Shown here piece after piece: positions 1 through 35,092 of a stretch of DNA of 64,000 nt; within the stretch, counting starts at the first letter, position 1; each line of letters starts with the position of its first letter. The position numbers and the translations under genes were made by a program. The notes under the pieces were generated by a model. It worked only from the letters and a program-made list of their open reading frames with translations. It was not told where the DNA came from and did no database searches. Location: assembly GCA_965208325.1 (NCBI GenBank), contig OZ242326.1, forward strand, positions 2,688,001-2,752,000, read 5' to 3'. Source of the DNA: Candidatus Poribacteria bacterium. Lineage in GTDB: Bacteria; Poribacteria; WGA-4E; PCPOR2b.

Positions 1-122
1 GTGTTTATCAGGTTACCTCGCCCATTGACCAACGCGGGCAGGGAACTTCCAACCATACAGATTGAGTCGATTTTGGTCAAACAGCCTACAGCAGTCCAAA
101 ATCGTATCTGATTCTGACAAAA

Positions 123-16911: not shown

Positions 16912-19224
16912 ATGACAATTGGACGAAAACAACTATGGGTAGGATTGAGTTTTTTTCTAATCAGTATCAATCCCGCATTTTCTACGGTGGACGAGGCGAA
17001 AGTGAACCCCATTGAGTTGGAGGAAATCACCGTCATTACCCGCGTCCCAAAAGATACTTTCCGAACACCGAACTCGATTTCCGTCATTGACCGAACGCAA
17101 ATCGAACGCATCAACGCCGACATCACGCCCCGAATTCTACGCGAAACCGTCGGAATTTGGGCGCAGCAGACGACTGCCGGGCAAGGTTCGCCGATGCTGC
17201 GCGGCCTCACCGGATATCAAGCTTTTCTTTCTATAGATGGCGTCCGACTCAACAACTCTACCTTTCGCTCCGGTCCAAATCAGTATTTGGGGACAATAAG
17301 CCCAGCTAACCTTGACCGAATTGAAGTGTTGCGGGGCGCTGGGTCAATGCTATACGGCAGCGGCGCCATGGGCGGTGTCATTAGCATGTTCACTAAAGAT
17401 GTGATTCTGGACAATGCAACGGATAAATGGAACATCCAGTCCCGCACTTTCGGTCGATTCGCTTCCGGAACTTCAGAACGGCTAGGTCGCTTTGAGGTAA
17501 TGGGAAACCGCAGGCGGCTCGGGTTTTCGTTTGGTGCGTCCGCCCGCCGGTTCGGTGATATCAATTCGGGCAGCGGTTACGACCTGCACTACAAGAACCG
17601 TAAATTTGAAATTGTCAGCGAAAAACCGCCGGGCGTTGAAATCTTTGAAGGTCCGCCGAAAGATGTGCCGGAGCGTTGGCTGATTGACTCTGAAGCGCCG
17701 CTGGATTGGAGCGCATACGACGGCGACGCCAAACTCGCCTACCAACTCACTGACACCAGTGCGGTAAACGTCGCCTACCAACTCTGGCGTCAACCGAAAA
17801 CCCCGCGCTACGACAAGATTGCACCGCGCGAGTTCGACGAGTTCTTTTTCGAACCCCAACACCGAGATCTTCTTTATGCGACTTACTTGAAAGAACCAGC
17901 TAACTCCGAGATAGACCAGTTTCGATTTACCGCCTCTTTTCATCGGCAGAAAGAAGGGCGGAACGAACTCTTGCGGGATGCCACGGAAAGGCGAGAGCGG
18001 TTTGACAAGGTCAACACGTTTGGTCTGAGTGCACAGGCAACCAATGCATCGCTGCCTAACCAACGTATTGTCACAGGCGTCGAATTTTATTTCGATACCC
18101 TTTCGAGCCAAACCGTCAAGACCGACGTCACGACCGGCGCTGAGAAGGTAGACAACACAAAAGGACGCTTTATCGACGGATCTCGCTTCTGGGATGCGAA
18201 CCTCTACGTTCAAGATGAAATTGAGCTGCACGACCGGCTGGAACTCACGCTCGGCGGGCGATTCACCCACTATAATACACAAGCCGACCTTTCGGCGCGT
18301 TCCGATCAATTTAGCGACTTTAACGAATCCGGAAACGCATTGACCGGAAGTGCAGGCGTCGTGATAAGCGTCACGGACGGACTGAACCTCGTCGGCAATT
18401 TCGCCACATCGTTCCGTGCGCCTTCGCTGAATGATACCACCGCCGTTGAAGTCACCAACGAAGGTATAGACTCGCCTTCGCCCGCCCTCAAATCAGAGAC
18501 TGGGTGGACAGCAGAAACCGGTCTTAAAGCACGCTATTCGCAGTTCATTGGCTCGCTTACCCTTTTTCACGGCCGCATCGACAATTTGGTCACGCGCGTC
18601 CCCGTCGAAGAAGCATATGCAGGACAATCGCTTCCAAGCCTGATTACGGAAATTCAACGCAACAATCCAGGCGTTGATGTCTATGTATTCGACAATGTTG
18701 ATGAAGTGCAGACTCAAGGCATCGAGTTGGCTGGAATGTTCACTATCCGAAACAGTTGGGCGTTCTACGGTAACACGGCTTACACACGCGGGAAGGTGTT
18801 GGTGCTTAACGGTGCCGCGCCTAACCCCGATAATCCTTGGGAAGGACGGATTCGCCGTGAACCGCCGCTCAACGGAATGTTCGGTATCCGATGGCACCCG
18901 TCAGCTAAGCGGTACTGGGGAGAAATTTTCGTTCGCGGCGCAACCGAACAGCGGCGATTGAATCGCAGTGACATACGAGACCCGCGAATCCCAGGCACTA
19001 CCCGTGATACCGGTGAGGTCGAGTTTGATTCACACGGTGCAGCGGTTGGGCAAGGTTCGGCGAGTTGGGTCACGCTTAATCTGCGAGGCGGTTATCACCT
19101 GACCGATTACAATCGAATGACGGTTGCACTTGAAAACCTGTTGGATGAGCGGTATCGCGAGCACGGCTCCGGCATCAACGCACCGGGGTTGAATGTGATT
19201 GTCAGTCTAGACAATCGATTCTAA
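16912..19224 (+). CDS. TonB-dependent receptor
   Basis: signal peptide, TonB-box-like EEITVI, plug (LRG...IDGVRLN...RIEVLRGAGSMLYGSGAMGGVI), FRAP, ENLLD, C-terminal Phe. Confidence 0.95.
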   Translation: MTIGRKQLWVGLSFFLISINPAFSTVDEAKVNPIELEEITVITRVPKDTFRTPNSISVIDRTQIERINADITPRILRETVGIWAQQTTAGQGSPMLRGLTGYQAFLSIDGVRLNNSTFRSGPNQYLGTISPANLDRIEVLRGAGSMLYGSGAMGGVISMFTKDVILDNATDKWNIQSRTFGRFASGTSERLGRFEVMGNRRRLGFSFGASARRFGDINSGSGYDLHYKNRKFEIVSEKPPGVEIFEGPPKDVPERWLIDSEAPLDWSAYDGDAKLAYQLTDTSAVNVAYQLWRQPKTPRYDKIAPREFDEFFFEPQHRDLLYATYLKEPANSEIDQFRFTASFHRQKEGRNELLRDATERRERFDKVNTFGLSAQATNASLPNQRIVTGVEFYFDTLSSQTVKTDVTTGAEKVDNTKGRFIDGSRFWDANLYVQDEIELHDRLELTLGGRFTHYNTQADLSARSDQFSDFNESGNALTGSAGVVISVTDGLNLVGNFATSFRAPSLNDTTAVEVTNEGIDSPSPALKSETGWTAETGLKARYSQFIGSLTLFHGRIDNLVTRVPVEEAYAGQSLPSLITEIQRNNPGVDVYVFDNVDEVQTQGIELAGMFTIRNSWAFYGNTAYTRGKVLVLNGAAPNPDNPWEGRIRREPPLNGMFGIRWHPSAKRYWGEIFVRGATEQRRLNRSDIRDPRIPGTTRDTGEVEFDSHGAAVGQGSASWVTLNLRGGYHLTDYNRMTVALENLLDERYREHGSGINAPGLNVIVSLDNRF

Positions 19225-19272
19225 TCGAAGGGAATTTGCTGGAGGTCCAAATGAACCGGAGATATCGAAACG

Positions 19273-19319
19273 TGCACAAAACCGAGCAAGCGTACATCTG
19301 AATTGCACCGTTTTGTGCA
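19273..19319. promoter_or_regulatory. pair of candidate enhancer-binding-protein sites
   Basis: TGCACAAAACCGAGCA (19273-19288) and TGCACCGTTTTGTGCA (19304-19319); 14/16 inverted match; 31 bp apart. Confidence 0.5.
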
Positions 19320-19405
19320 ACGGCCGACACACTAAAAAAACACATACTGTTCGTACGGCTGGACTTAACGCGCATACCGCGCCGAAATTGAAGTGGCGAA
19401 TCCGT

Positions 19406-19420
19406 TGGCACGCATTTTGC
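19406..19420 (+). promoter_or_regulatory. sigma54 (-24/-12) promoter upstream of the WD40 array
   Basis: TGGCAC-GCATT-TTGC, about 97 bp before ATG 19517. Confidence 0.7.
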
Positions 19421-19516
19421 CCGTCCATTTAATCACCTCGAAGACACTAATCTAGTTTCGTTAACTAGAATTCTCAGAAGTGAGTATTCACGTGATGATT
19501 AAAGAGGAGAGAGACA

Positions 19517-21763
19517 ATGCAAACTGACAAGCAAAACCAATTCATGAAAATGGCACAATTTGTAACATTAATACTTCTCGTATTGGTAACGGTCACATTT
19601 GCATCAAACAGCTCCGCCCAAGGTTCTCCGCAATGGAGTCTCCCCGATGGCGCTAAAGCCCGCTTCGGCAAGGGTGAGATAAATGAAATACAGTATTCGC
19701 CCGACGGTACACGGCTTGCGGTGGCTAGCGGTATCGGTATTTGGCTCTACGATACGGCGACCCATCAAGAAGTCGCGCTGCTCGCGGGGAATATGTCCGC
19801 CGAAAGCGCTGCGTTCAGTCCGGATGGGCGTACCATTTTAAGCGCAAATGGAGACTCAATCCGATTCTGGCACGCCGATACTGGCGAATCCATGCGAACC
19901 GTTACCGTATCGGATTCGGTCGAAAGCGTTGGGTTCAGTCCCGATGGGCGCGCTATAGTAAGTAGTGCGAGTTGGGGCGATACCGGTGACGAGGATTGGG
20001 GAGATACCATCCGTCTTTGGGACGCCGATACGGGCGAACTTCTACACACGCTCACCGGGCATTCTAGTATTGTTGAAATCGTTGCGTTTAGTCCAGATGG
20101 ACGCACTGTCGCCAGCGGGGGTTGGGATGCTACCGTCCGGATGTGGAACGCTGACACGGGCGAAATCCTTCAAACCCTCATCGGGCATTTTGGTAGTGTC
20201 GATAGCATTGCATTCAGCCCCGATGGTGCAATGCTTGCCAGCGCGGACTTTTTCGACATTCGGTTGTGGGACATTGCTACAGGCGAACTTCTCCGGACGT
20301 TCGAGCCGGAAAGAAGTGGCGTCAATGGCGTCGCATTCAGCCCGGACGGCACAACGCTTGCCAGTGGGATTTGGGAAGAAATTCATCTGTGGGACACTGC
20401 TTCGGGCGAACTCATCCGAACGCTCAACGGACATACGAGTTGGGTCAATAGCGTTGCGTTCAATCCTGATGGGCGCACTATCACCAGTCACAGCCGAAAC
20501 GGCGCCATCCGGATGTGGGACGTTACCTCGGGCAACCACCTCGGAACGCTCAACGGGCATACGAGTTCGCTCAGGAGCATCGCGCTCGCCCCTGACGGCG
20601 CGACGCTCGCTGGCGGGAGCGATACCGGGACCGTACGGCTGTGGGACATTGCGTCTCGCCAACACCTGCGTACACTCACTGGAAACAGCCGTAGTGTCAG
20701 TAGCGTCGCTTTCAGCCCAGGTGGCACAACGATCGCTACCGGGAGTGATGACAGTAATGTACGGCTGTTAGACATTGCGGATGGGGAACTCCTACGAACA
20801 CTCAGCGGACATAGCTTGAGTGTCCATAGCGTAGCCTTCAGCCCAGATGGTGACAGAATCGTTAGCGGAGGTTATGACAGTCGGGCGCGGCTTTGGGACG
20901 CTGCCACAGGAAACCACCTGTTCACGTTCGACGAGCATGCGGGTTCTGTCAACACCGTCGCATTCCACCCAAATGGGCGCACGGTCGCCAGTGCGGGTAG
21001 GGACACCCTCATCCGCCTGTGGGACGCCGCCACGGGCAAGCAATTAAAAACGCTCGAAGGACATACGGGTGCCGTCGGTAACGTCGCTTTCAGTCCTGAC
21101 GGTGCGATGCTCGCTAGTGGAAGCTGGAGTGAGATTATTCTGTGGGACACAGCATCGGGCGAACTACTGCAAATACTCAGCGGGCATACGAGTTCGGCCA
21201 GTAGCCTCGCTTTCAGCCCGAATGGCAATACGCTCGCGGGCGGAAGCTCGGAAGAGATTCACCTGTGGGACATCGCCACAGGCAACCACCTGCGAACACT
21301 CGCCGGGCATGCGAAGTCGGTCAGTAGTGTCGCTTTCAACCATGATGGTGACACTCTCGCGAGTGCAAGTTCGGACGGCACCGTGCTGCTTTGGGAAATT
21401 TCCCCATCAACCGGTGTTGGGATTTCGGTAGAACCTTTGGAAAGCCGCATCACGACGTTGGGAAACATCAAACGCACGGCGCTGCTGCAGAATTATCCAA
21501 ATCCGTTCAACCCTGAAACCTGGATGCCATATCAGTTGGAACAAGACGCTTACGTCACCTTAACCATCTATGACCAGAGCGGTAATGTCGTCCGCATCCT
21601 TGACATTGGACATCAAAAACCGGGAGTCTACCGAGACAAATCAGAAGCGGCGTATTGGGACGGCCGCAACCAAAACGGAGAACCCGTCACCAGCGGCACG
21701 TATTACTACCAACTCCGTGCGGGCGATTACACCGCATTACGGCGGATGGTGATTGTCAAGTAG
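19517..21763 (+). CDS. secreted WD40-repeat protein with FlgD-Ig/T9SS-CTD-like C-terminal domain
   Basis: signal peptide, about 14 GH...FSPDG...WD repeats, ALLQNYPNPFNPETW...YWDGRN...GTYYYQL...RRMVIVK. Confidence 0.93.
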   Translation: MQTDKQNQFMKMAQFVTLILLVLVTVTFASNSSAQGSPQWSLPDGAKARFGKGEINEIQYSPDGTRLAVASGIGIWLYDTATHQEVALLAGNMSAESAAFSPDGRTILSANGDSIRFWHADTGESMRTVTVSDSVESVGFSPDGRAIVSSASWGDTGDEDWGDTIRLWDADTGELLHTLTGHSSIVEIVAFSPDGRTVASGGWDATVRMWNADTGEILQTLIGHFGSVDSIAFSPDGAMLASADFFDIRLWDIATGELLRTFEPERSGVNGVAFSPDGTTLASGIWEEIHLWDTASGELIRTLNGHTSWVNSVAFNPDGRTITSHSRNGAIRMWDVTSGNHLGTLNGHTSSLRSIALAPDGATLAGGSDTGTVRLWDIASRQHLRTLTGNSRSVSSVAFSPGGTTIATGSDDSNVRLLDIADGELLRTLSGHSLSVHSVAFSPDGDRIVSGGYDSRARLWDAATGNHLFTFDEHAGSVNTVAFHPNGRTVASAGRDTLIRLWDAATGKQLKTLEGHTGAVGNVAFSPDGAMLASGSWSEIILWDTASGELLQILSGHTSSASSLAFSPNGNTLAGGSSEEIHLWDIATGNHLRTLAGHAKSVSSVAFNHDGDTLASASSDGTVLLWEISPSTGVGISVEPLESRITTLGNIKRTALLQNYPNPFNPETWMPYQLEQDAYVTLTIYDQSGNVVRILDIGHQKPGVYRDKSEAAYWDGRNQNGEPVTSGTYYYQLRAGDYTALRRMVIVK

Positions 21764-21864
21764 CGGCAAATCGTTGCAGCGATTCCGCGTTATTTTATAA
21801 CCTCGTTTCTGCAATTACTGAGGACGACGTGATTTACGATACTCAACCATCCAGGGCAACTGTT

Positions 21865-24141
21865 ATGAAGATAGCGTTGATTTTCAAAATTAGCTTACTG
21901 TGCGTTTCCGCTCTTTGTCTGCCGCATAGCCTCGCTCAAAAATCTCCGCAATGGAGCCTGCCCGAAGGCGCAATAGCTCGCCTTGGAAAGGGTAGGATAA
22001 GCGATATACAGTATTCGCCCGACGGCACTCGACTTGCGGTAGCGAGCAGCATCGGTATTTGGCTCTATGATACGGCGACCCATCAAGAGGTTACACTGCT
22101 CGCCCCGCATATTTATGTCGAAAGCGTTGCGTATAGTCCGGATGGGCGCACCATCGCGGGCGGAAGCAGTGACAACATCATCCGACTGTGGGACGCACAT
22201 ACGGGTGAACAACGGCGAATACTCATCGGACATACGAGTTGGGTCAGGACAGTTGCGTTCAGCCCTGACGGACGCACACTCGCAAGTGGGAGCAGTGACG
22301 ACACCGTCCGGCTGTGGGATGCGCTCACGGGAAAACTCCTTCACACACTCACCGGGCATTCGGACGAAATTCGCAGCGTTGCGTTTAGTCCTGATGGCAA
22401 CTCGCTCGTAAGCGGGAGCAGCGACAATTCCATCCGTCAGTGGGACTCATTTACGGGCGAACACCGGCGAACACTCACCGGACACACGTCTGGCGTAGTA
22501 AGCGTCGTGTTCAGTCCAAATGGGCGTACCATTGCAAGTGCGAGCGGGATCAGTGATGGAGACGGCATCCGGCTGTGGAACACCGATACGGGACAACTTC
22601 GGAGCACGCTCATCGGACATTCGGGGCGGGTCACGAGCGCCGCGTTTAGTCCCGATGGTGACAGAATCGCAAGTACTAGTTGGGACAATACAATCCAACT
22701 GTGGGACGCACATACGGGTGAACACCGACGAACACTCACCGGACACACGTCTGGAGTAGTCAGCGTCGTGTTCAATCCTGATGAACGTACGCTCGCAAGT
22801 GGTAGTGGAGACGGTACTATCCGGTTATGGGACATTGAATCGGGAGAATTCCTGCGATCAATCCCCGGGCATACGGGTTGGGTCGACACCGTTGAATTCA
22901 GTCCCGATGGACAAACGCTCGCAAGTGTGAGTTCGAGCTATATCGTTGAGCACAGTCCAAACCGCCGCGCAGGAAGTGGGGGCGGCAACGCAACTATCCG
23001 GCTGTGGAACGCCGATACCGGAAAACTCAGGCTATCAATTAACGAGTACAAGAATGGAATTGATGACGTTTCGTTTAGTCCCGATGGGCGCACTCTCGCT
23101 GGTGTTGGCTGGAACAGTATCCAATTATGGGACACCAACACCGGAGAACTTCTGCGAACACTCAGGGAGCATGAAGGTTGGGTCAATACTATTGCGTTCA
23201 GCCCCAATGGACGCACAATTGCTACTGGAGGGAGTTGGGACAACGTCGTCCGTCTTTGGGACGCCGATACCGGAAAACTCCGGCAATCGCTCATCGGACA
23301 TACCGATTCGGTCACGAGCGTTGCCTTCAGCTCCGACGGACACACGCTCGCAAGTTGTGCGGGATTAGACAATACCATCCGTATGTGGGACGCCAATGCG
23401 GGAAAACTCCTGCGTACGTTCACTGGAACTACCGGTTTGGGAGCGAGCGTTGCCCTAAGTGCCGATGGAAGCACGCTCGCAAACGCCGGTAATTGGGATG
23501 GCACCGTCCTGCTCTGGGATACCGATTCAGGCGAACTCCTACATACCCTCACCGGACATAGATTTGACGTCGAAAGCATTGCGTTCAGTCCCGATGGACT
23601 CATCCTCGCCAGCGGAGGGAGTTGGGACGACACCATTCGACTGTGGAACATCAAATCGGGGAAACTCCACCAAACACTCAAAGGCCATGCGATTGGGGTG
23701 CGAAGCGTGGCGTTTAGTCCGAATGGACGTACGATGGCTAGCGCCGGTTTGGACGGCACAATACTCCTTTGGGATTTTACTCTCAGCACCTCCGATGACG
23801 TTGCGGTTGAGAATTTGCCGCAGCTCACCACGACCCTGGGAAACATCAAACGGACGGCGTTGCTGCAAAATTACCCGAATCCGTTCAACCCCGAAACCTG
23901 GATACCGTATCAGTTGGAAAAGAATTCACTGGTGACCTTGATTATCTACAACCAAAGCGGCCATATCGTCCGCACACTTGACATAGGGCATCAAAGTTCG
24001 GGAGCTTACCTAGACAAATCAGAAGCGGCGTATTGGGATGGATGCAACCAGAACGGAGAACCCGTTACCAGCGGCGCGTATTTTTGTCAACTCAGGACGG
24101 GTGATTACAGCGCGTTACGGCGAATGTTGATTGTCAAGTAA
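21865..24141 (+). CDS. secreted WD40-repeat protein with FlgD-Ig/CTD, paralog 2
   Basis: probable start MKIALIF at 21865 (the ORF track extends into the upstream gene); same N-terminal block and CTD. Confidence 0.93.
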   Translation: MKIALIFKISLLCVSALCLPHSLAQKSPQWSLPEGAIARLGKGRISDIQYSPDGTRLAVASSIGIWLYDTATHQEVTLLAPHIYVESVAYSPDGRTIAGGSSDNIIRLWDAHTGEQRRILIGHTSWVRTVAFSPDGRTLASGSSDDTVRLWDALTGKLLHTLTGHSDEIRSVAFSPDGNSLVSGSSDNSIRQWDSFTGEHRRTLTGHTSGVVSVVFSPNGRTIASASGISDGDGIRLWNTDTGQLRSTLIGHSGRVTSAAFSPDGDRIASTSWDNTIQLWDAHTGEHRRTLTGHTSGVVSVVFNPDERTLASGSGDGTIRLWDIESGEFLRSIPGHTGWVDTVEFSPDGQTLASVSSSYIVEHSPNRRAGSGGGNATIRLWNADTGKLRLSINEYKNGIDDVSFSPDGRTLAGVGWNSIQLWDTNTGELLRTLREHEGWVNTIAFSPNGRTIATGGSWDNVVRLWDADTGKLRQSLIGHTDSVTSVAFSSDGHTLASCAGLDNTIRMWDANAGKLLRTFTGTTGLGASVALSADGSTLANAGNWDGTVLLWDTDSGELLHTLTGHRFDVESIAFSPDGLILASGGSWDDTIRLWNIKSGKLHQTLKGHAIGVRSVAFSPNGRTMASAGLDGTILLWDFTLSTSDDVAVENLPQLTTTLGNIKRTALLQNYPNPFNPETWIPYQLEKNSLVTLIIYNQSGHIVRTLDIGHQSSGAYLDKSEAAYWDGCNQNGEPVTSGAYFCQLRTGDYSALRRMLIVK

Positions 24142-24249
24142 CTCCACACAATTGAAGCAAGAAACCAACCGTTTTAAAAAAACTGGACTCTATGGTTACT
24201 GCGTGCGGTATGAATCAGATGCGGCACACCAACATGGAGGGTTATTGCA

Positions 24250-26481
24250 ATGAAGTTAGCGGTATTCTTGATGCTTAGCTCATTGTTCGTTTCAAATCTA
24301 TCGATTCCGCATAGCTTCGCCCGAGATTTTCCACGATGGGGGCCGCCCGAAGGGGCAATTGCACGTATCGGCAAAGGCAGGATAAGTGAAATCCAATATT
24401 CGCCCGACGGCACTCGACTCGCGGTCGCAAGCAGTATGGGTATTTGGCTTTACGATACCGCCGCCCATCAGGAGCTCGCCCTGCTCACCGGGCAAACGCC
24501 TGTGACTACCGTGGCATTCAGCCCCAATGGGCACACCATTGCGGGTGGGGGTGAGAACACTATCCGTTTGTGGAACGCTGCTTCCGGTAAACACGTACTA
24601 TCGCTCAACGGGAATACGAAATTGGTCAGGAGCGTTGTATTCAGTCCCGATGGCCGCACAATCACAAGTGGAGGTGAGGACAAGAATATCAGTCTGTGGG
24701 ATGCCGACACAGGAAATCAACTACTTACGCTAAGCGGGCACACTGGCTCGGTCAATAGCATCGCGTTCAGTCCTGACGGAAAAACACTTGCTAGCGGCAG
24801 TAGTGACGGCACTGTCCGTTTCTGGAACACGGATACTGGAAAACACCTGAGAACGATTACCCAGAATAAATCTGGAGTCGGAATCGTTGCATTCAGTCGC
24901 GATGGAAACACACTCGCCAGCGGGGGTAGCTCCATCATCCGCTTGTGGGACGTCAATACCGGGATTCAGCGGCGAATTCTCACCGGGCATACGTCCGGAG
25001 TCGAAAGCGTCGCTTTCGGTCCCGATGGTAACACAATCGCTAGTGGGGACGGTGCCGGCATCATCTATCTGCGGGACGCTGATACGGGTAATCGCCGGTT
25101 TACGTTCACCGGGCACACAGATTCAGTCACGAGCCTGGCGTTTAGTCCCGATGGAAACACAATCGCTAGCGCGAGCGCAGACGGCACAATCCGTCTGTGG
25201 GACACCGATTCGGGAAGACACCGGCAGACGCTCACTAGACCGGGCACGGTCAATAGCATTGCGTTCAGTCCCGATGGTAACACAATCGCTAGTGGGAGCG
25301 GGGATAACACCATCCGTCTTTGGAACGCAGATACACGGGATTATCAGCGTACACTCACCGGACATTCGGATTGGGTCTATAGCGTAGCCTTCAGTCCCGA
25401 TGGTAACACAATCGCTAGTGGGAGTTGGGACAATACCATCCGCCTATGGGAGGCGGATACAGGAAAACACCTGCGTACACTAGACGGGCATAGGGGTTTT
25501 GTCAACAGCATCGTATTCAGTCCCAATGGCAAAACACTCGCTAGTGGGAGCGCGGACGATACCATCCGTCTGTGGGACACCGAATCGGGAGCACATCAAC
25601 GTACGCTCATCGGGCATACAGATTGGGTCTACAGCGTCGCGTATAGTCCAGATGGAAACACAATCGCTAGTGGAAGCGGCGATGGCACCATCCGTCTTTG
25701 GAACGCAGTTACAGGAAAACCGCGACGCACGCTCACCGGACACACGCATTGGGTCTTTTGCGTCGCCTTTAGCCTAGATGGAAACACAATCGCTAGTGGA
25801 AGCGGCGACGATACTATCCGTCTGTGGGACTCAAACACAGGAAATCTTCGACGAACACTTACAGGGCATGCACTTCCGGTCGAAAGCGTCGCATTCAGTC
25901 CAGATGGAAACACACTCGGTAGTGGAAGTACGGACCATACTATTCGGCTCTGGGACACTGATACTGGCGAACACTTGAGGACACTCACCGGACACACGGC
26001 TACGGTCTATGATTGGGTCTTTAGTGTAGCGTTCAGTCCCGACGGCAAAACACTCGCTAGCGGCGGAAGTTGGACTGGCGATGGAAATCGGGACGGTACC
26101 GTGTTGCTGTGGGAATTTCCCGCTTCTAGCGGCGTTGGGGTCGGTGTGAAACCGTTGGCAAAACTTACCACGAAACTCGGAAACATCAAACGAACGGCGC
26201 TGTTACAGAATTTCCCGAATCCGTTCAATCCCGAAACCTGGATACCGTATCAGTTGGAAAAAGGTGCTTGGGTCACATTAACCATCTATGACCAGAGCGG
26301 TCACATGGTCCGCACCCTAGACATCGGAAATCAAGTTTCAGGAGTGTACCTAGACAAATCAGATGCGGCGTATTGGGATGGCCGCAATCAAAACGGAGAA
26401 CCCGTAACCAGCGGCACGTATTACTATCAACTCCATGCGGGCGATTACGCCGCATTACGGCAGATGGCGATCGTCAAGTAG
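24250..26481 (+). CDS. secreted WD40-repeat protein with FlgD-Ig/CTD, paralog 3
   Basis: GGAGG RBS, signal peptide, highly regular 42-aa WD40 repeats, CTD. Confidence 0.94.
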   Translation: MKLAVFLMLSSLFVSNLSIPHSFARDFPRWGPPEGAIARIGKGRISEIQYSPDGTRLAVASSMGIWLYDTAAHQELALLTGQTPVTTVAFSPNGHTIAGGGENTIRLWNAASGKHVLSLNGNTKLVRSVVFSPDGRTITSGGEDKNISLWDADTGNQLLTLSGHTGSVNSIAFSPDGKTLASGSSDGTVRFWNTDTGKHLRTITQNKSGVGIVAFSRDGNTLASGGSSIIRLWDVNTGIQRRILTGHTSGVESVAFGPDGNTIASGDGAGIIYLRDADTGNRRFTFTGHTDSVTSLAFSPDGNTIASASADGTIRLWDTDSGRHRQTLTRPGTVNSIAFSPDGNTIASGSGDNTIRLWNADTRDYQRTLTGHSDWVYSVAFSPDGNTIASGSWDNTIRLWEADTGKHLRTLDGHRGFVNSIVFSPNGKTLASGSADDTIRLWDTESGAHQRTLIGHTDWVYSVAYSPDGNTIASGSGDGTIRLWNAVTGKPRRTLTGHTHWVFCVAFSLDGNTIASGSGDDTIRLWDSNTGNLRRTLTGHALPVESVAFSPDGNTLGSGSTDHTIRLWDTDTGEHLRTLTGHTATVYDWVFSVAFSPDGKTLASGGSWTGDGNRDGTVLLWEFPASSGVGVGVKPLAKLTTKLGNIKRTALLQNFPNPFNPETWIPYQLEKGAWVTLTIYDQSGHMVRTLDIGNQVSGVYLDKSDAAYWDGRNQNGEPVTSGTYYYQLHAGDYAALRQMAIVK

Positions 26482-26547
26482 GAGAACGACGTGTTCAATG
26501 ACTATTCTGCGGATTACGTTATTTATGTCGCAGTTTACAGAACTATA

Positions 26548-28767
26548 ATGAAAACAGTCTCCACGTTAATTTTCTGTCTGACGTTAACTTCAGTTGTTTT
26601 TGCCGAACTTCGGCCCATCGGTTCATTGGGAAAGGGTGAACTCCGGGATATTACCTTCCTGCCAGATGGGAGAATTCTGCGCGTTCTTTCTAACCGTATT
26701 GAGTTAGCCGACCCAAATACTAGGGAAACTATAGGACGATTTGCTGACAGAACAGTGTCTATGGGGAATGTCACGGTCAGCAGAGACAGTTTGAGGTTAG
26801 CAATTGTACGGACAAAGCGCTCCCCATCGCAAACTGCGATTGAAATATGGGAGTTGGCATCACAACGAAAAATCCTTCAACGCACGATCCCGCTGACCCT
26901 TTATCACACAGCATTGAGCCCAGATCTAATGGTTTTTGCTGGACACAATGAGGGAATAATTCGCCTCTGGAGTGTCGAAACGGGCGAATCTCTCGGTGAG
27001 GTTAAATGGACGGATCAGCCCAGCTTTGTCCGGTTAGCGTTCAACTCAGATGGGCGGCAACTACTCTCCATCAATTCTTATATCTCCCGTGAGCTTCCCG
27101 GTGGCGACGACCATTGGGAGACGGCCATAAGCAACTGGGATATTGCTTCTCGTCAACGCTTGTGGAGCTACACAAGAACTTTTAGGGTAATACGTGCGAT
27201 ATACAGTCCTGATGGTCGTTGGATTGTTATGGCTGACACCAATGATCGGATTCAGTTTTGGGACGCGAAGCTAGGGACGCAACAGCTTGTTTTGCACGTC
27301 ACAGGTAATGCGCAAAAAATGCGATTCAGTCCCGATAGCAAGAGGATTTACATTGCATCCGGCACAAGCGGTTACCCAAGGCAACCCAATCGGGTAAGCA
27401 TCTGGGATATCGAAACCGGTGAACAACTCCAGGAATTGGGCGACGAAACACTTGGCATTGAGGGGCTTACTATTTCGCGCGATGAAACACAAGCAGTGAT
27501 CTGGTATCACAATGGATTTGTCTCGCTATGGGACATTCAACAACGCCGCCGTCTCGCGCTCCAAACCGATTACGTTTCTCCGAGTTGGGGATCTGTTACG
27601 CCGGATGGGCACTACCTAGTCAGTGGATCGAACGCTGCCCTCATAATCTGGAATCTCCGTACACAATCGCTCCAGGCAACAATCTTCCCCAACGAGTATG
27701 TTTTCCGTCATGTTGCGATGTCGCCGCACGGACAGTATTTTGCTGTAGGTCATGACCCATGGATAGAAATACGGGAGGCACGCAGCGGTCAAATTCTTTT
27801 AAAAGTTCCAAATAATGTTGGATCGACACCCTACGTTTTCAGTAACGACGGGAGGCGGCTTGCCGTAGGCCAGCATAGCAGTGTAGTCATTTACAATCTT
27901 CACAATCCCGATAAACGGGAAGAACTGTTGCCAAAGGAACAAGCTTACATCTCAGAACGTCATATCGTTTTCAGCCCGGACGACCGCTATCTGGCAGTAT
28001 CGGATTGGGACAACGAGGTGCATCTGTGGGAAAATAACATGGACAGATATGTCCATCGCTATTCGTGGCAAATTCCGGCATCTCAGATCGACGACATCGA
28101 ATTTGAGCCGAAACCGACGAATCCTGCGCTAGTTGTTATCGGAAATGGGGATGAGTTACAGGTGTGGGAACTTGGAGACACCGCCCCGAAGCAATCAATG
28201 CGTTTCAATGCCTCCGCTCCAATCCATTTTGTGCACGGCGGTGCTGAGTCTCTCCATCTGCAAAGGGATTACCTGTTTGTTAATCACGGGGGAAGACTTC
28301 AGATTTGGGATTGGGCAATCAAAACACCCGTCACGGCACCTGACATCCCACGCTACTTTGCTGCAAATCGGGATGGTTCAGTCGTGGTAGCCCGGGATTA
28401 TGTTTCCGACCAAACGCGAATCTGGAACGTCCGACAACTAATCTTTCCCAAACCGATACTTTTGGGCGAAGTTAGACGGACAGCGCTCTTGGCAAATTTC
28501 CCGAATCCACTCAACCCTGAAACATGGATTCCCTACCAACTTGCAGATTCTGCTAATGTGCAAATCCATATTTATGATGTTGCGGGGCATCTGGTACGGA
28601 CGTTAGATTTAGGCACGAAACTCGCGGGGAGTTATCTCTCACGAGAGACTGCGGCCTATTGGGACGGCCGCAATAATATGGGCGAGGCGGTCGGCAGCGG
28701 GGCATACTTCTACACGCTGGAGACCGGTGATTTTCGGACCACGAGACGCGTGACTGTTGTGAAATAG
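26548..28767 (+). CDS. secreted divergent beta-propeller (WD40-like) protein with FlgD-Ig/CTD
   Basis: probable start MKTVSTLIFC at 26548; degenerate SPDG/WD blades; ALLANFPNPLNPETWIPYQL CTD. Confidence 0.88.
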   Translation: MKTVSTLIFCLTLTSVVFAELRPIGSLGKGELRDITFLPDGRILRVLSNRIELADPNTRETIGRFADRTVSMGNVTVSRDSLRLAIVRTKRSPSQTAIEIWELASQRKILQRTIPLTLYHTALSPDLMVFAGHNEGIIRLWSVETGESLGEVKWTDQPSFVRLAFNSDGRQLLSINSYISRELPGGDDHWETAISNWDIASRQRLWSYTRTFRVIRAIYSPDGRWIVMADTNDRIQFWDAKLGTQQLVLHVTGNAQKMRFSPDSKRIYIASGTSGYPRQPNRVSIWDIETGEQLQELGDETLGIEGLTISRDETQAVIWYHNGFVSLWDIQQRRRLALQTDYVSPSWGSVTPDGHYLVSGSNAALIIWNLRTQSLQATIFPNEYVFRHVAMSPHGQYFAVGHDPWIEIREARSGQILLKVPNNVGSTPYVFSNDGRRLAVGQHSSVVIYNLHNPDKREELLPKEQAYISERHIVFSPDDRYLAVSDWDNEVHLWENNMDRYVHRYSWQIPASQIDDIEFEPKPTNPALVVIGNGDELQVWELGDTAPKQSMRFNASAPIHFVHGGAESLHLQRDYLFVNHGGRLQIWDWAIKTPVTAPDIPRYFAANRDGSVVVARDYVSDQTRIWNVRQLIFPKPILLGEVRRTALLANFPNPLNPETWIPYQLADSANVQIHIYDVAGHLVRTLDLGTKLAGSYLSRETAAYWDGRNNMGEAVGSGAYFYTLETGDFRTTRRVTVVK

Positions 28768-28821
28768 GATTGCTCCTCAAATCGCCGCCGCCAATAAACA
28801 TCAATTGACCTTAATGCCGTT

Positions 28822-30873
28822 ATGTTAAAGCGATACTTTAAGCAGATCGCGCTTGCCGTAATCTGCATCAGCAATCCATTGCCGACGGTTTTTCTCGGAA
28901 ATGCCCTAGGCGATCAGCCCGATTCAGAACTGACCGATGCGAAACCTGTTGAACTCGACGAGATTGTCGTGACACCCGGCCGGTTTGCGATTGATGACGA
29001 AACGCCGTCAAGGATATCCCTCTCAAAACGGCTCATTGAACGCTTTCCGCTGGTTGATAACGACGTGATGCGGGCTGCACATGTTTTCCCGGGGGTCGTT
29101 GCAAGCGATTACAGTGCGCGATTCAGCGTGCGAGGCGGCGAAAAGGACGACGTTCTGGTGAGGTTGGACGGCATGGAGCTCTTCAATCCGTACCACCTGC
29201 AAGACTTTGGCGGCGCAGTTTCACTCGTTGGGCTAGATTTAATTCAACGCGTCGAACTGTTGATGGGCGGCTTCCCCGTGGAATACGGGGACAAAATGTC
29301 TGGCGTGTTCGACATGACAACAAAGTCCAAGAAAATCGACAAGGTTTCCGCGAATTTCGGAGTTGACCTTATCAATACAACCGCGATGGTGGAAGGCCCC
29401 TTATCAGAGAAAGGGTCGTGGCGCCTATCTGCACGCCGCGGCTACGTTGACCTGATTCTTGCGCTAATCGATCTTGATGAGGACTACAAGCCGCAATATG
29501 CTGATGCCTACGCCAAACTTACCTATTCGCCGACACAGACGGACACAATCACTCTAAACGGTCTATACGGTTGGGACAAGAACCGGATTCGGCAAGAAGA
29601 CATCGAAAATAACTTAGATTCGAGATATGACAACTTGACCGTTTGGACGCGGTGGCGGCATCGCTTTGGAAATGCGAACTGGTCAGATGTGTTTGTTTTT
29701 GGGGGAAACGCAGCGCAAGACCGGCGCACCGGAGCCGAGGACTTCGATGTACGCTCGTTCGGTTTCTTCGGAGCCAAAACCGAATTTACAGCCGGATTTC
29801 TGGACAAACACCTGTTTCGCAGCGGAATTGAATGGCGCAGGATGACAGCGCAATACGAGTACGATGTCCGCGAGCGGCAACCCGGTGTCAATAATTATGC
29901 AAGGGTAGTTGCGGACCTAGAAGGCAGCGGCGGCGAACTGAAGGCATACATTCAAGATGAGTGGCAGCTCCACCCGAAACTCGCGTTCAACTTTGGCGGG
30001 CGGTATATATTCCAAGACTATCGCGCTGCGGGTATCCAAAACTACGAATTAGGACCCCGCGCGGCGCTTGCCGTTCGCCCAACAGAGAAGCTAGTGTTGC
30101 GCGGGGCGTGGGGGTTTTATCACCAACCCATCCGTTTGATGAATATCCCTGTCGAGGACGGTGTTCAGACTGTCGGGCGCGCTGAACAAGCGGTTCATTA
30201 CATTCTCGGCGGCGAATACCGTCCAAGCGATAATTTCCTGTTCCGTTTGGAGTCGTATTCAAAAACATTGGACAATCTTGCGGGTCGGCTCAGGGAATTT
30301 GGCCGGCAGGCACAGATTTTCACGCCTCCGGAATCCGGGGCGGCAAAAGGGGTAGATATATTTGTCACGCATGCGGTTTCAAACCGGTTCACGTGGAGCA
30401 TCGGCTATGCATACACGGTTGCCAAAGAAAGTGCAGGCGGCGAGACATTTTTCCGGCAGTCTGACCGGCGGCATGCAGTCGCAGTCAGCAGCAGCCATCA
30501 ACTTTCGCGCGGGCGGCATCTCTATCTGACGTGGCGTTTCCATTCCGGCGAACCGAGAACGCCGTTGACGCATTCGCTGGTCTCTCTGCCGAAGGGAAAC
30601 ATCGCCTGCGACCGGCAGTTCGAGGCGACGCATTCAGAGCGGATGCCGCCCTATCACAGTCTCGATTTTCGGTTCACGGATCGGAATCCATACAGCCGGT
30701 GGGAACTCACCTGGTATTTCCAAATTTTAAATCTTTACAATCGAACTAACCTTGACCAGTATGCTTTCAGTGAGGTGCGAGACGAGGAAACGGGAGCGCT
30801 CATCCGATGCGAAATTGATGAAGAGCCGATGCTGCCGATTCTGCCGACATTGGGCGTTATGGTCGCGTTTTAA
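28822..30873 (+). CDS. TonB-dependent receptor
   Basis: DEIVVT, plug VRGG...LDG...NPYHL...GGFPVEYG..MSGV, YIQDEW, NLYNRTN, C-terminal Phe. Confidence 0.92.
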   Translation: MLKRYFKQIALAVICISNPLPTVFLGNALGDQPDSELTDAKPVELDEIVVTPGRFAIDDETPSRISLSKRLIERFPLVDNDVMRAAHVFPGVVASDYSARFSVRGGEKDDVLVRLDGMELFNPYHLQDFGGAVSLVGLDLIQRVELLMGGFPVEYGDKMSGVFDMTTKSKKIDKVSANFGVDLINTTAMVEGPLSEKGSWRLSARRGYVDLILALIDLDEDYKPQYADAYAKLTYSPTQTDTITLNGLYGWDKNRIRQEDIENNLDSRYDNLTVWTRWRHRFGNANWSDVFVFGGNAAQDRRTGAEDFDVRSFGFFGAKTEFTAGFLDKHLFRSGIEWRRMTAQYEYDVRERQPGVNNYARVVADLEGSGGELKAYIQDEWQLHPKLAFNFGGRYIFQDYRAAGIQNYELGPRAALAVRPTEKLVLRGAWGFYHQPIRLMNIPVEDGVQTVGRAEQAVHYILGGEYRPSDNFLFRLESYSKTLDNLAGRLREFGRQAQIFTPPESGAAKGVDIFVTHAVSNRFTWSIGYAYTVAKESAGGETFFRQSDRRHAVAVSSSHQLSRGRHLYLTWRFHSGEPRTPLTHSLVSLPKGNIACDRQFEATHSERMPPYHSLDFRFTDRNPYSRWELTWYFQILNLYNRTNLDQYAFSEVRDEETGALIRCEIDEEPMLPILPTLGVMVAF

Positions 30874-32198: not shown

Positions 32199-32459
32199 TT
32201 AGCCCTATCCGAAACAGAGTTTCTTGGCGAATTAAGTCCTAGAATTCTGTTGTTCATTGTAATTGTCGTACACCTGTGTTCAATTTATGAACTGCAATCC
32301 GTGATGAAATCCGCTGCATTCTCCAACAGCAGCGGACTTAGCCTCGGGAGGGGAGTTACGTCGAGATGGGATTCGGGTTGAGAAATCAAGTTAGATATTG
32401 TTAAAATATCTGAAGCAGCGTCTCAGATTCACATTTTAAACGAACAAAAGGAGGAGAAA

Positions 32460-33434
32460 ATGAGAGTGAACAATGTTATGTTTTGCCTCATCGCGCTTTG
32501 GGGCGTAGTTCCATTCGTCCGTGCCGACACCGCTCGGGCAGATGAGGAGGCTTTAATCAATAGCAGATTGGCTTCCATGTTTCAGAAGGCGGAGAATTTT
32601 GAGGAGAAGCGCGTAACATTGTCCGAAGATAAAGCCGCATCCATCGAAAAGAAGATTGGCGCAACGTTACTCGACGAGGACCGCAACCCCATATTTTACA
32701 TCGCGTACAACGACAAAAAGAAGCCGATGGGATTAGTACGATTCGTCAAGGTCAAAGGACCGCACGGTATCATAAGCGGCGGGGTTGCCTTAAATATGAG
32801 CGGAAAAGTAGTCAAGGTCGACGTTTACAAGCACAAGGAATCCTCCAAAATCGGCGAGGAAGCGTTCCTTTCACAATTCATCGGCAAGGGAATCGATGAC
32901 AAGTTTAAGCTTGGGAAGGACATTAAGCCCGTCGAAGGGGAGTCGGAAGCCTCTCAAGCCGTTGCGATGATCCCCAAAAAAACGCTCGTGATGAGCTACG
33001 CACTCTTCTTCAAAAAGAAAGAGAAGCCAAAACCGGTAGGTGATGAAGATTATAAAATCGAAGACCTACATGCGCTAATGCACGAGATGCACGAATCTTA
33101 CATCTTGATACGGGAATATTTCAAGACCGGCGAAAATCAAGCCGATGCGGTTAAGGCAGCAAATCAGCTTTGGGAATATGCAAATTTAATCGCCGATTTT
33201 GAACCTCCGAAGAATCCGAATAACCAGGAAGAATACCTCCATTTGCAGAAAAAGACCCAAGATGCACTTCTTGAATTCGCCGAATCGCTCGAAAAAGATG
33301 GGGTTACAGAAAAGACTCGCAAACAGTGGCAGCAGCTCCTTGATGTGGTTAACCAGGCGCATCTTCGATTTAGCGTGGAGGAGATTGACCTTGACGAAGA
33401 TTTAAAGGAGGATAATGGAGAGGAAGAAAAATGA
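32460..33434 (+). CDS. periplasmic fusion: FMN_bind (RnfG/NqrC-like) domain plus cytochrome b562/c'-like four-helix bundle
   Basis: signal peptide; FLSQFIGK...LGKDIKPVEGESEASQAV (degenerate DxxSGAT region); C-terminal EDLHALM...EPPK...VNQAHLRF. Confidence 0.65.
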   Translation: MRVNNVMFCLIALWGVVPFVRADTARADEEALINSRLASMFQKAENFEEKRVTLSEDKAASIEKKIGATLLDEDRNPIFYIAYNDKKKPMGLVRFVKVKGPHGIISGGVALNMSGKVVKVDVYKHKESSKIGEEAFLSQFIGKGIDDKFKLGKDIKPVEGESEASQAVAMIPKKTLVMSYALFFKKKEKPKPVGDEDYKIEDLHALMHEMHESYILIREYFKTGENQADAVKAANQLWEYANLIADFEPPKNPNNQEEYLHLQKKTQDALLEFAESLEKDGVTEKTRKQWQQLLDVVNQAHLRFSVEEIDLDEDLKEDNGEEEK

Positions 33435-33916
33435 CTTCTGAAACGCATTTCGAACAATCTAAACGGCGCACCTTCTTTAAATCCGGCATCGCCTTCATCA
33501 GCGGTGTCATTAGCTTGGCGATGGCGGTGCCGCTAATCGGTGCTGCGATAGCTCCTGCGTTCAAAAAAGGGCAAAAAAAATGGGTGGATCTGGGGCTCGT
33601 CGAGCTGCTTAAAGGCGCCCGCCACAAGAAGATTAACTACACTTTTCAAGCCAAAGATGGCTGGGTCCAAGCGACTAGAGAACGCTCCGTTTATGTGACG
33701 GATGAAGGCGGCGGACGTTTTGTGGTTTTTTCGCGCGTCTGCACACACCTCGGTTGCCTCGTCCGATGGGACGAAAAGAAAAGGCACTACCACTGCCCCT
33801 GCCACGGCGGTATCTTTGACGAAACTGGGAATGTCATCGCCGGACCGCCGCCGCGTCCTTTGGAGCGGCCGTCGGTCAAGGTGGAAAACGGCATTCTGTA
33901 CGTCAGGGAGGTATAG
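33431..33916 (+). CDS. Rieske 2Fe-2S subunit of a Rieske/cytochrome b complex
   Basis: Tat motif KRRTFF plus TM segment; CTHLGC and CPCHGG boxes; GPPPRPL. Confidence 0.96.
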   Translation: MTSETHFEQSKRRTFFKSGIAFISGVISLAMAVPLIGAAIAPAFKKGQKKWVDLGLVELLKGARHKKINYTFQAKDGWVQATRERSVYVTDEGGGRFVVFSRVCTHLGCLVRWDEKKRHYHCPCHGGIFDETGNVIAGPPPRPLERPSVKVENGILYVREV

Positions 33917-33919
33917 CAA

Positions 33920-35092
33920 TTGAGACGCAGGATTGCCGCATTTTTTGAATCTCGCCTTCCTTTAAGCGATGTAGTAAATCATCTCAAAAAACCGCTCCCG
34001 AAGCATATCAACTGGCTCTTCTCTTTGGGTAGTATGGCGGCCTTCCTTCTGATTCTTCAAGCCGTCACGGGGGCGTTTTTGGCGCTCTATTATTCGCCCT
34101 CGCCCGATCACGCCTATAATTCGGTGAAATACATCAGTCACGAAGTCCCCTTCGGCGCTTTTGTCCGCGGCCTACACCACTGGGGCTCCAGCGCGTTGGT
34201 GATTGTCGTGTTCTTGCATCTCCTGCGGGTCGCACTTTACGGTTCCTACAAAGCCCCAAGGGAACTGACGTGGATAGTCGGTGTTATTCTTTTTATGGTC
34301 GTGTTAGGATTTGGTTTTACAGGCTATCTGCTGCCATGGGACCAAAAGGCGTACTGGGCAACGGTGGTCGGTGTGGAGATTGCAGGCACAGTACCGTTAG
34401 TAGGTGACTTCATCGCAAAGATTCTTCGCGGCGGCGCCGAAGTCGGCGCTGTCACCCTGACACGATTTTACACCCTCCATACCATCTGGCTGCCGTGGCT
34501 CGTTTTTGTGCTCGTCGGGCTCCATCTGTTTTTCGTGCGCTACTACGGCTCTGCCGGATTGCCCCAAAACAGACCCGAAGAAATGCAGGGCGGCAAACCC
34601 TTCTATCCGGATCAGCTCTTTGAAGATGCGGTCGCCATTTTGGTGCTGTTCATTTTGCTCGCCGCAGCAGCGATTTTTATTCCTGTTCCGCTCGAAGAAC
34701 TCGCCGATTCGACCGACGCTAGCTACGACCCGCGTCCGGAATGGTATTTCCTGTTTCTGTTTCAATTGCTCAGATATTTCGAGGGACCGCTTGAAGTAAT
34801 CGGCACTTTCGTGATTCCTACAGCTGCCATCGTCCTCCTTCTACTCCTGCCCTTTTTGGATAAGCGCGAGCGAGTACCCCTGCGAAAACGACCGGTTGCA
34901 CTTGCTGTCACCAGCCTATCCGTGCTTGCCATTGTCACACTCACCATCCTCGGTGGGCGTTCTCCAAAACTGGAAACCCCATCGGAACCCTCAATTAAGC
35001 AATCTGAATCCCCGTCCAATGGCGCAAATCAGAGCGAGGATGCGACTCCCGATGAAGATGCAGACGACACTCCAGTATTCGATTTCAACTGA
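33920..35092 (+). CDS. cytochrome b subunit (fused b6 plus subunit-IV type)
   Basis: RGLHHWGSS...HLLR, GYLLPWDQKAYWA, RFYTLH...GLH, PFYP, PEWYFLF, LPFLD; TTG start. Confidence 0.96.
   Translation: MRRRIAAFFESRLPLSDVVNHLKKPLPKHINWLFSLGSMAAFLLILQAVTGAFLALYYSPSPDHAYNSVKYISHEVPFGAFVRGLHHWGSSALVIVVFLHLLRVALYGSYKAPRELTWIVGVILFMVVLGFGFTGYLLPWDQKAYWATVVGVEIAGTVPLVGDFIAKILRGGAEVGAVTLTRFYTLHTIWLPWLVFVLVGLHLFFVRYYGSAGLPQNRPEEMQGGKPFYPDQLFEDAVAILVLFILLAAAAIFIPVPLEELADSTDASYDPRPEWYFLFLFQLLRYFEGPLEVIGTFVIPTAAIVLLLLLPFLDKRERVPLRKRPVALAVTSLSVLAIVTLTILGGRSPKLETPSEPSIKQSESPSNGANQSEDATPDEDADDTPVFDFN

Follow-up and report, generated by a model that had tools for sequence, protein, structure and literature searches.

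Rieske/cytochrome b complexes form a core of respiration and photosynthesis; their cytochrome b and Rieske subunits are conserved, and the subunit that accepts the electron of the Rieske cluster is the part that varies by lineage. The locus described here raises the question of what that acceptor can be in an operon that encodes no cytochrome c. It lies in a window of 64,000 nucleotides from the genome of a Candidatus Poribacteria bacterium (contig OZ242326.1, positions 2,688,001 to 2,752,000) and comprises three genes for an exported two-domain protein, here called ORF1, a Rieske [2Fe-2S] subunit and a cytochrome b. The answer that we favour, at a probability of roughly 0.55, is that the C-terminal four-helix bundle of ORF1 would serve as a haem-b acceptor of the Rieske electron in place of cytochrome c1. 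Positions are given as window coordinates on the + strand, and the family, genus and genome labels (f, g, G, L, P) are those of this analysis.

A Rieske/cytochrome b operon without a cytochrome c

ORF1, the Rieske gene and the cytochrome b gene form one translationally coupled unit. As a preliminary description of this stretch had reported, the genes are tightly packed: ORF1 and the Rieske gene overlap by 4 bp (ATGA), and a 3-bp gap separates the Rieske stop codon from the start of cytochrome b. Each gene has a GGAGG-type ribosome-binding site of its own on the 5' side. That description had called the fusion protein the third gene, and it is in fact the first of the operon. Its claim that the operon lacks a c-type cytochrome held, in that a motif scan of the three genes found no CxxCH, CxxxCH or CxxxxCH; cytochrome b is free of cysteine, and the only cysteine of ORF1 lies in its signal peptide. 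The features to which the text refers are as follows.

32460..33434, + strand: ORF1, 324 aa, exported two-domain protein, operon gene 1
32460..32531, + strand: N-terminal hydrophobic segment of ORF1, residues 1-24, hydropathy peak at residues 2-20
32547..33014, + strand: RnfG/NqrC-fold domain of ORF1, residues ~30-185, a fold match without flavinylation site
33057..33374, + strand: cytochrome b562-like bundle of ORF1, residues 200-305, predicted fold
33078-33080, + strand: Met207 codon, helix 1 of the ORF1 bundle
33360-33362, + strand: His301 codon, near the end of helix 4 of the ORF1 bundle
33375..33431, + strand: conserved acidic C-terminal tail of ORF1 (S-x-E-E-I-D-L-D-E-D-L...)
33431..33916, + strand: Rieske [2Fe-2S] subunit, 161 aa, operon gene 2
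33920..35092, + strand: cytochrome b, 390 aa, TTG start, operon gene 3
34736-34747, + strand: PEWY Qo motif, cytochrome b residues 273-276, invariant columns
34958..35089, + strand: acidic tail of cytochrome b, residues 347-390, 11 D/E vs 3 K/R
35075-35086, + strand: V-F-D-F motif near the end of the cytochrome b acidic tail, conserved in non-fused orthologues

In all other respects the complex conforms to the Rieske/cytochrome b superfamily and is of the b6-like fused type: the Rieske motifs, the histidine pairs and PEWY are all present, and the haem-c third subunit is the only feature lacking. The Rieske protein (PF00355, E 9.6e-12) has one membrane helix and a twin-arginine pair, R12 R13. 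Its cluster motifs are C104-T-H-L-G-C109 and C122-P-C-H-G-G-I-F, with C104-C109 and C122-H125 invariant in 40 sequences, and the second motif reads CPCHG[G/A]xF in 40/40 aligned sequences. A Ser and a Tyr in this motif raise the Rieske potential in bc1 and b6f complexes; since both are missing from CPCHG[G/A]xF, a low-potential cluster is suggested. The nearest solved chains are 8hn2_A (E 1.1e-18), a 110-residue 'b6-f complex iron-sulfur subunit' which we take to be a Chlorobaculum protein, and 3fou_A/1nyk_A, presumably from Thermus, whose entries are named quinol-cytochrome c reductase Rieske subunit and Rieske iron-sulfur protein, respectively.

Cytochrome b (PF00033, E 2.3e-55; PF00032, E 1.6e-11) is of the type in which b6 and subunit IV are fused, and its best solved matches are cyanobacterial b6 proteins. 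The haem ligands H86/H100 and H187/H202, together with PEWY at residues 273-276, are invariant in 22 sequences. A haem ci, bound in b6f complexes by a conserved Cys near the N-terminus of b6, was considered and is ruled out by the absence of any cysteine from the protein. Hydropathy predicts seven membrane helices and, with the N-terminus taken as cytoplasmic, the C-terminal acidic tail would therefore lie in the periplasm. No cytochrome c gene was found beside the orthologous loci examined.

A predicted four-helix bundle with an invariant Met and His

ORF1 has more than 500 relatives of 318-331 aa, and those that carry an organism name are Candidatus Poribacteria. In its AlphaFold2 model (61 sequences, mean pLDDT 85.8), an N-terminal helix is followed by an alpha/beta domain to about residue 185, a low-confidence linker (186-197) and a bundle at 203-304, the helices of which span residues 203-223, 227-246, 256-280 and 284-304 (blocks 21-30 at pLDDT 84-96). 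Taken from this full model, the bundle aligns residues 200..305 against 1..106 of E. coli cytochrome b562 (256b_A; Z 13.3, rmsd 1.9 Å, 100 residues) and scores Z 13.5-13.8 against cytochromes c'. When the bundle was modelled alone (45 sequences, pLDDT 84.6, pTM 0.78) and compared to 48,161 representative chains without the use of Foldseek, its three best matches were cytochrome c' 6a3k_A (Z 12.4), the Kusta0087/0088 complex 6r6n_A (Z 12.2) and cytochrome c' 1bbh_A (Z 12.0), and cytochromes c', cytochromes b562 and b562 (BRIL) fusion constructs accounted for most of the top 30. A profile of the bundle domain gave a collinear match to b562 in the PDB at E 0.33, a weak lead, and the nearest named cluster in the ESM Atlas is the 'Cytochrome b562 family' (0.85), likewise a lead only.

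It is the residue pattern in the alignments that sets this bundle above a generic one. Met207 and His301 are invariant in two alignments (125/125 and 84/84 sequences), fused forms included, across sequences whose overall identity is just 40-50%. By the alignment offsets to 256b_A, His301 falls on b562 residue 102 and Met207 on residue 7 or 8, and the haem ligands of b562 are Met7 and His102. M210 and W290 are also among the conserved residues of the bundle, and the acidic tail behind it is conserved as well: E[IV][DE]L[DE] occurs within the final 30 residues of 77/84 ORF1 rows, and columns E307-D312 are conserved in 114-123 of 125 sequences. The bundle probably descends from the b562/c' class and would work likewise. 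The preliminary description had assigned an RnfG/NqrC-like domain and a b562-like bundle to this protein, with which the predicted folds agree, and to the second of which the invariant Met and His at the b562 haem positions add.

Fusion of the bundle to cytochrome b

A sample of the phylum, comprising 151 genomes (135 in families f1-f3 and 16 in the rest), revealed that the bundle also occurs without the N-terminal domain, as the C-terminal part of cytochrome b. This arrangement is found in 4/151 genomes, which are 4/4 of those sampled from genera g9 and g12, in frames of 494-528 aa that match Pfam Cytochrome_B and Cytochrom_B_C in the same protein; among 120 listed clusters of a protein collection, 10 are such cytochrome b::bundle fusions, of 490-509 aa. 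The two parts are joined by a long disordered linker. One of the fused genomes, G032, gives no separate ORF1 match, so the bundle does not depend on the presence of an RnfG-like domain. The seven predicted helices place the C-terminus of cytochrome b, and hence the fused bundle, on the side of the Rieske head.

The acidic tail of the window's cytochrome b, which was correctly noted before, lies at the same site. The suggestion that relatives carry a fused cytochrome c there is in line with the part of the literature consulted (PMC4122944), and in some Poribacteria genera it is the bundle that is fused at this point. VF[DE][FL] is present in the tail of 19/19 non-fused orthologues, four of which have two copies, and in 0/3 fused ones; the motif is sometimes duplicated together with the following L-T-E-E-E (L039-L058). 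The fused forms end in E-E-I-D-L-D, as does ORF1. We would guess from this pattern that V-F-D-F may be a tether or docking motif on cytochrome b.

The N-terminal RnfG-like domain

The N-terminal domain of ORF1 is an RnfG-fold module without covalent flavin. Its fold matches 9eri_G (Foldseek E 1.2e-6), and a VIA alignment to RnfG gave Z 17.8 and rmsd 4.0 over 174 residues, with residues 1-185, including the N-terminal helix, taken into account. Pfam FMN_bind matches ORF1 below the cut-off (18.5 vs 22 bits, E 0.0033) and exceeds it in a few relatives (P0121, 28.1 bits). Because the Pfam matches of ORF1 are below the cut-off or lacking, both labels, FMN_bind and b562, are those of predicted folds.

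FMN_bind proteins share a conserved (S/T)GA(T/S) motif, the final residue of which carries the FMN. Residue 162 of ORF1 corresponds to the flavinylated Thr, and across 84 aligned rows it is E in 58, Q in 15, A in 4, K in 3 and S in 1. A (T/S)GAT(I)SS motif is kept only by distant stand-alone relatives of the N domain and is gone in the close ones and in ORF1. The flavin transferase ApbE had no match in the window genome (G000, a single 4.7-Mb contig of 95.6% completeness); it was found in 0/135 sampled genomes of the ORF1-carrying families f1-f3 and in 8/16 of the others. As the flavinylation residue is not conserved and ApbE was not found, covalent FMN on this domain is rejected, and the epithet 'FMN-binding' given to the protein before is not supported. 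There are no Rnf or Nqr partner genes near ORF1. A role in docking or as a scaffold is more likely for this domain than one as a redox centre.

Residues 1-24 of ORF1 are probably a Sec signal peptide with a putative cleavage site between the Ala and Asp of V-R-A-D; alternatively, the segment may stay uncleaved as an N-terminal anchor in the manner of RnfG.

Stand-alone relatives of the N domain, of ~185 aa (P0129, P0133, P0140, P0143 and others), have lost the flavinylation motif. They have a conserved His just past the predicted signal-peptide cleavage, which falls between the first two residues of A-H-E-x-x-W-P-G-K-R-L, and this N-terminal His resembles N-terminal His copper sites. A scan of the genome contigs with a single protein found no relative of these stand-alone forms.

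Distribution and gene order across Poribacteria

ORF1 was found in f1 (25/25 genomes), f2 (10/10) and f3 (99/100), and in 0/14 genomes of f4-f8; the sole f9 genome gave only a weak match to the N domain (E 7.4e-5). Orthologous cytochrome b, of at least 67% identity, appears among the matches listed in f1, f2 and f3 genomes only. The cytochrome b matches listed in f4-f7 are of 38-43% identity or weaker, and none was found in f8 and f9 at E <= 1e-20; at one locus examined among these families (L060), an octahaem cytochrome c adjoins cytochrome b. One f1 genome, G140, has no cytochrome b orthologue (best match 51% over residues 12-213), and its ORF1 match is a weak one to the N domain; one f3 genome in 160 contigs, G083, has the cytochrome b and no ORF1 match. 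The common range of ORF1 and this cytochrome b clade is suggestive of a tie between them.

Gene order was surveyed with a profile of the C-terminal domain in species-representative genomes, and the best 80 of 128 loci were considered, at which all named organisms are Poribacteria and two are 'uncultured bacterium'. ORF1 is followed by the Rieske gene at 29/80 species loci, nine of which continue with cytochrome b, and a cytochrome b fusion is present at 1/80. The preliminary description had proposed that its reading would fall if the first gene were not conserved with the other two. The outcome is divided: the 29 loci with ORF1 next to the Rieske gene speak for conservation, and at 50/80 loci ORF1 lies elsewhere.

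The neighbours of ORF1 differ between these lineages. At 19/80 loci, a gene for an outer-membrane efflux protein and one for a Tat-exported multicopper oxidase stand directly 5' of ORF1-Rieske (L031:5106-9450 in g2; L065 in g3). This oxidase could be a product of a copper-resistance gene or the oxidant of an ORF1 haem. In most f3 genomes, a conserved ORF1 cluster (L035:5174-12004 in G056; similar in L033, L038 and L043) encodes a Cys-rich protein of 142 aa, a barrel-looking protein of 311 aa, a YtkA-like protein of 346 aa, a VWA protein and a 519-aa protein in which a single CxxCH domain precedes a barrel-like part ending in Phe. The cluster may provide an outlet for electrons in the outer membrane or form a metal system; apart from VWA paralogues, its members have no homologue in the window genome. 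At L041:7920-9341 (G001, g5), ORF1 is lengthened to 473 aa by an inserted DUF7088 (E 6.5e-17), which separates the bundle from the RnfG-like domain, and the Rieske and cytochrome b genes still come next.

Other respiratory genes of the organism

The preliminary description had also regarded the architecture as independent of cytochrome maturation and proposed a check of the genome for Ccm and apbE. Ccm genes are present, ApbE, as stated above, was not found, and for the organism as a whole the notion of maturation independence has to be given up. In the genome's one 4.7-Mb contig, three matches to the cytochrome c assembly family exceed the cut-off, one of them in an open frame of 682 residues, and 75 ORFs contain CxxCH, several of them multihaem. 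Outside the window, a second respiratory cluster (G000:C1:3415320-3439600; L061, L062) encodes a Rieske protein, a split b6 and subunit IV, a 1084-aa octahaem cytochrome c, a 616-aa cytochrome-bd-I-like protein, and several mono- and dihaem cytochromes c, one of which carries an ethylbenzene-dehydrogenase-like domain. The genome's only COX1 match is located in this cluster together with COX2, COX3, COX4, CtaB and SCO1; the aa3 oxidase gene set is complete, and it shares one 25-kb stretch with the other genes of the cluster. Given the Ccm genes, the cytochromes c and the second, c-dependent cluster, avoidance of haem-c maturation by the organism is ruled out, and the window unit is a second and different Rieske/cytochrome b unit. 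With regard to the quinone, the Pfam family that holds the futalosine enzymes MqnA/MqnD has three matches in the genome, which suggests menaquinone.

Weighing the explanations

Several observations weigh against a haem-b acceptor in ORF1. Values of Z ~12-13 are within the reach of helical bundles through architecture alone, the Foldseek E-values of the bundle are just 0.03-0.1, and the Pfam models for b562 (PF07361) and c' (PF01322) have no match in ORF1 at E <= 1. A set of Met, Met and His could equally bind Cu(I), and any of the many c-type cytochromes of the genome could act as the acceptor. Because related genomes are not independent of one another, the phyletic match is weaker than its counts. 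Gene order adds to these points: ORF1 is away from Rieske/cytochrome b at the 50 loci mentioned and in most of f3, where Rieske-cytochrome b is mostly a two-gene unit, as in Chlorobi, and where the neighbours of ORF1 are VWA, YtkA-like and barrel proteins with one CxxCH. In genus g2, ORF1 still has the Rieske gene next to it and cytochrome b stands alone at another locus, and the efflux protein and Tat multicopper oxidase encoded upstream there are reminiscent of copper homeostasis.

These neighbours lend themselves to a different explanation, which we regard as unlikely, namely that ORF1 is a periplasmic copper-handling protein with only a loose link to respiration and that another locus encodes the true acceptor, be it a c-type cytochrome or a copper protein. 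Besides the 19 loci of g2 and g3 that have the efflux protein and the oxidase, G060 has an adjacent CusA-like pump that contains a heavy-metal-binding domain and f3 an adjacent YtkA-like protein, and the conserved M207, M210, H301 and W290 resemble Cu(I) ligand sets. An acceptor encoded at a distance would fit the two-gene unit of f3, the Ccm genes and the many cytochromes c of the genome, and finds a precedent in the petCB operon of Chlorobi, which lacks a c1 gene according to the part of the source consulted (PMC10172866). Copper handling nevertheless leaves unexplained why it is only the bundle that cytochrome b carries as a fusion (4 genomes, 10 protein clusters), why ORF1 and the Rieske gene are translationally coupled and why ORF1 and the cytochrome b clade share a common range; the copper-type neighbours are absent from the window genome, and the nearest structural class binds haem, with ligand positions that agree. 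Still less probable, in our estimation, is a non-redox assembly factor, stabiliser or regulator, consisting of a cofactor-less bundle and a degenerate RnfG-like remnant. One 'redox' domain is already cofactor-less, its flavin site being lost and ApbE not found, four-helix bundles are common, and the sequence match to b562 is not significant; a scaffold is unlikely, on the other hand, to conserve so strictly a helix-1 Met and a helix-4-end His at the b562 ligand positions, and the complex needs an acceptor, of which none is encoded at the loci examined.

The third explanation, that ORF1 carries electrons through the periplasm to distant partners as a mobile or tethered shuttle rather than as a fixed c1-like subunit, differs less from the favoured one. 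Taken as a rival it appears doubtful, if somewhat better placed than copper handling. The cleavable-looking signal peptide implies that the mature protein is probably soluble, the neighbours vary between families and look redox-active, and the fused forms have a disordered, long linker. It is nevertheless a variant of the haem-b acceptor, since such a shuttle would still bind haem, and its candidate partners, the multicopper oxidase and the barrel proteins, are missing from the window genome. Within the favoured explanation of a haem-b acceptor, we give the shuttle, mobile or tethered, and the fixed subunit equal chances. A prediction of the complex (cytochrome b, Rieske, ORF1 24-324 and three haems) gave 0.33-0.34, as compared with 0.00 when ORF1 was replaced and 0.29 when cytochrome b was replaced, and was counted neither way.

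A proposed electron path and its meaning

If the bundle does bind haem, a quinol, presumably menaquinol, would be oxidised at the Qo site containing PEWY. One electron would pass to the Tat-exported, low-potential Rieske cluster and the other to the b haems as usual, and the mobile Rieske head would then hand its electron to a non-covalent haem b held between Met207 and His301. From there the electron would proceed to a further periplasmic or outer acceptor, for which the candidates vary by lineage and include the multicopper oxidase in g2 and g3 and the barrel proteins with one haem-c motif in f3; neither of these has homologues in the window genome. The bundle would be held close to the complex either by covalent fusion to the periplasmic C-terminus of cytochrome b, as in two genera, or as part of exported ORF1, in which case the acidic V-F-D-F tail of cytochrome b may act as the tether. 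More tentatively, and with slightly less than even chances, we propose that a b562-type haem-b domain replaced cytochrome c1 as the Rieske acceptor across a whole bacterial order, either as a fusion or as an exported protein possibly held by V-F-D-F.

The interest of the system is conditional on haem binding by the ORF1 bundle, which is a prediction. If it is borne out, a b562-like haem-b acceptor would be a new solution at the variable acceptor position, the complex would be the first bacterial bc-type complex with a high-potential branch free of covalent haem attachment, evidence that this branch can operate without cytochrome c maturation, and the much-used b562 fold would gain its first physiological electron-transfer context, with a natural partner. 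With regard to sponge-symbiont biology, the analysis shows that Poribacteria of three families run two different bc-type complexes, one wired to multihaem cytochromes c and an aa3 oxidase and the other of the window type. The fused forms, in which a single polypeptide unites cytochrome b with the candidate acceptor, would provide a handy expression construct.

Surroundings of the operon

A promoter-like site lies ~50 bp 5' of ORF1, and a terminator scan 3' of cytochrome b yielded nothing convincing.

32378..32407, + strand: promoter-like site, TTGAGA, 18-nt spacer, TAAAAT, TG present; 10/12 consensus positions agree, as a consensus match only

The neighbours within the window are unrelated to the operon: a BNR-repeat protein, TonB-dependent receptors and four WD40 proteins upstream, and yebC, ruvCAB and queA downstream. 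The WD40-repeat proteins are large and successive (748, 828, 743 and 758 aa; window 16912-30873), and the quartet is flanked by TonB-dependent receptor genes at 16912-19224 and 28822-30873. Eukaryote-like repeat proteins are typical of sponge symbionts. The DNA of the window was matched in sponge, coral-reef and marine metagenome runs; no RNA runs that could support co-transcription of ORF1, Rieske and cytochrome b were among those listed with window DNA.

Comparison with known systems

Each part of ORF1 has a well-known counterpart. RnfG and NqrC share the extracytoplasmic fold of residues 1-185, and the Thr that bears their covalent FMN is not conserved in ORF1. With E. coli b562 and the cytochromes c', the ORF1 bundle shares an up-down bundle of ~106 residues, the Met in helix 1, the His at the end of helix 4 and a periplasmic location; b562 differs in being a stand-alone protein, whereas the ORF1 bundle shares its chain with an RnfG-like domain or with cytochrome b and shows no significant sequence match. 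E. coli b562 is not known to have a physiological partner.

A non-covalent replacement of cytochrome c1 has a parallel in archaea, where CbsA (cytochrome b558/566), a b-type extracytoplasmic haem protein, is thought to take the place of c1 together with SoxNL. This system differs from the one described here in that it is archaeal and in that CbsA is glycosylated and not known to be related to four-helix-bundle cytochromes and the Qo motif is PPWF. The SoxNL-CbsAB complex of Sulfolobales is named in the part of PMC4122944 consulted. According to the corresponding part of a 2017 review, the acceptors in newly defined Rieske/cytochrome b subfamilies have not been examined (PMC5600118). By title or the start of the abstract, none of the literature surveyed describes a b562-like or FMN_bind-like partner of Rieske/cytochrome b; this survey did not cover Dibrova et al. 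2013, which is said to be a survey of Rieske acceptors.

In Bacillus, cytochrome b/subunit IV carries an additional redox domain at its C-terminal end, on the periplasmic side. A class I cytochrome c is fused at the C-terminal end of cytochrome b/subunit IV in other lineages, as stated in the consulted part of Kao and Hunte (2014; PMC4122944). In position and topology, the fusions of Poribacteria agree with these cytochrome c fusions. In contrast to them, the domain is a bundle of the b562/c' class without a covalent attachment motif, and for the most part it is found in a separate ORF1.

The closest system in gene content and Rieske type is that of the green sulfur bacteria. Their petCB transcription unit likewise has no c1 gene, oxidises menaquinol at low potential and has PEWY, as far as the consulted parts of the sources go (PMC10172866, PMC4122944). 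The acceptor in Chlorobaculum is given in the first of these as the membrane-bound cytochrome c-556 (CT0073), which is encoded elsewhere and has an Em of +190 mV (PMC10172866). The two systems thus part ways at the acceptor: in Chlorobi it is a class I c-type cytochrome encoded elsewhere, whereas the candidate in Poribacteria is a CxxCH-free bundle that is encoded in the operon (29/80 loci) or fused to cytochrome b.

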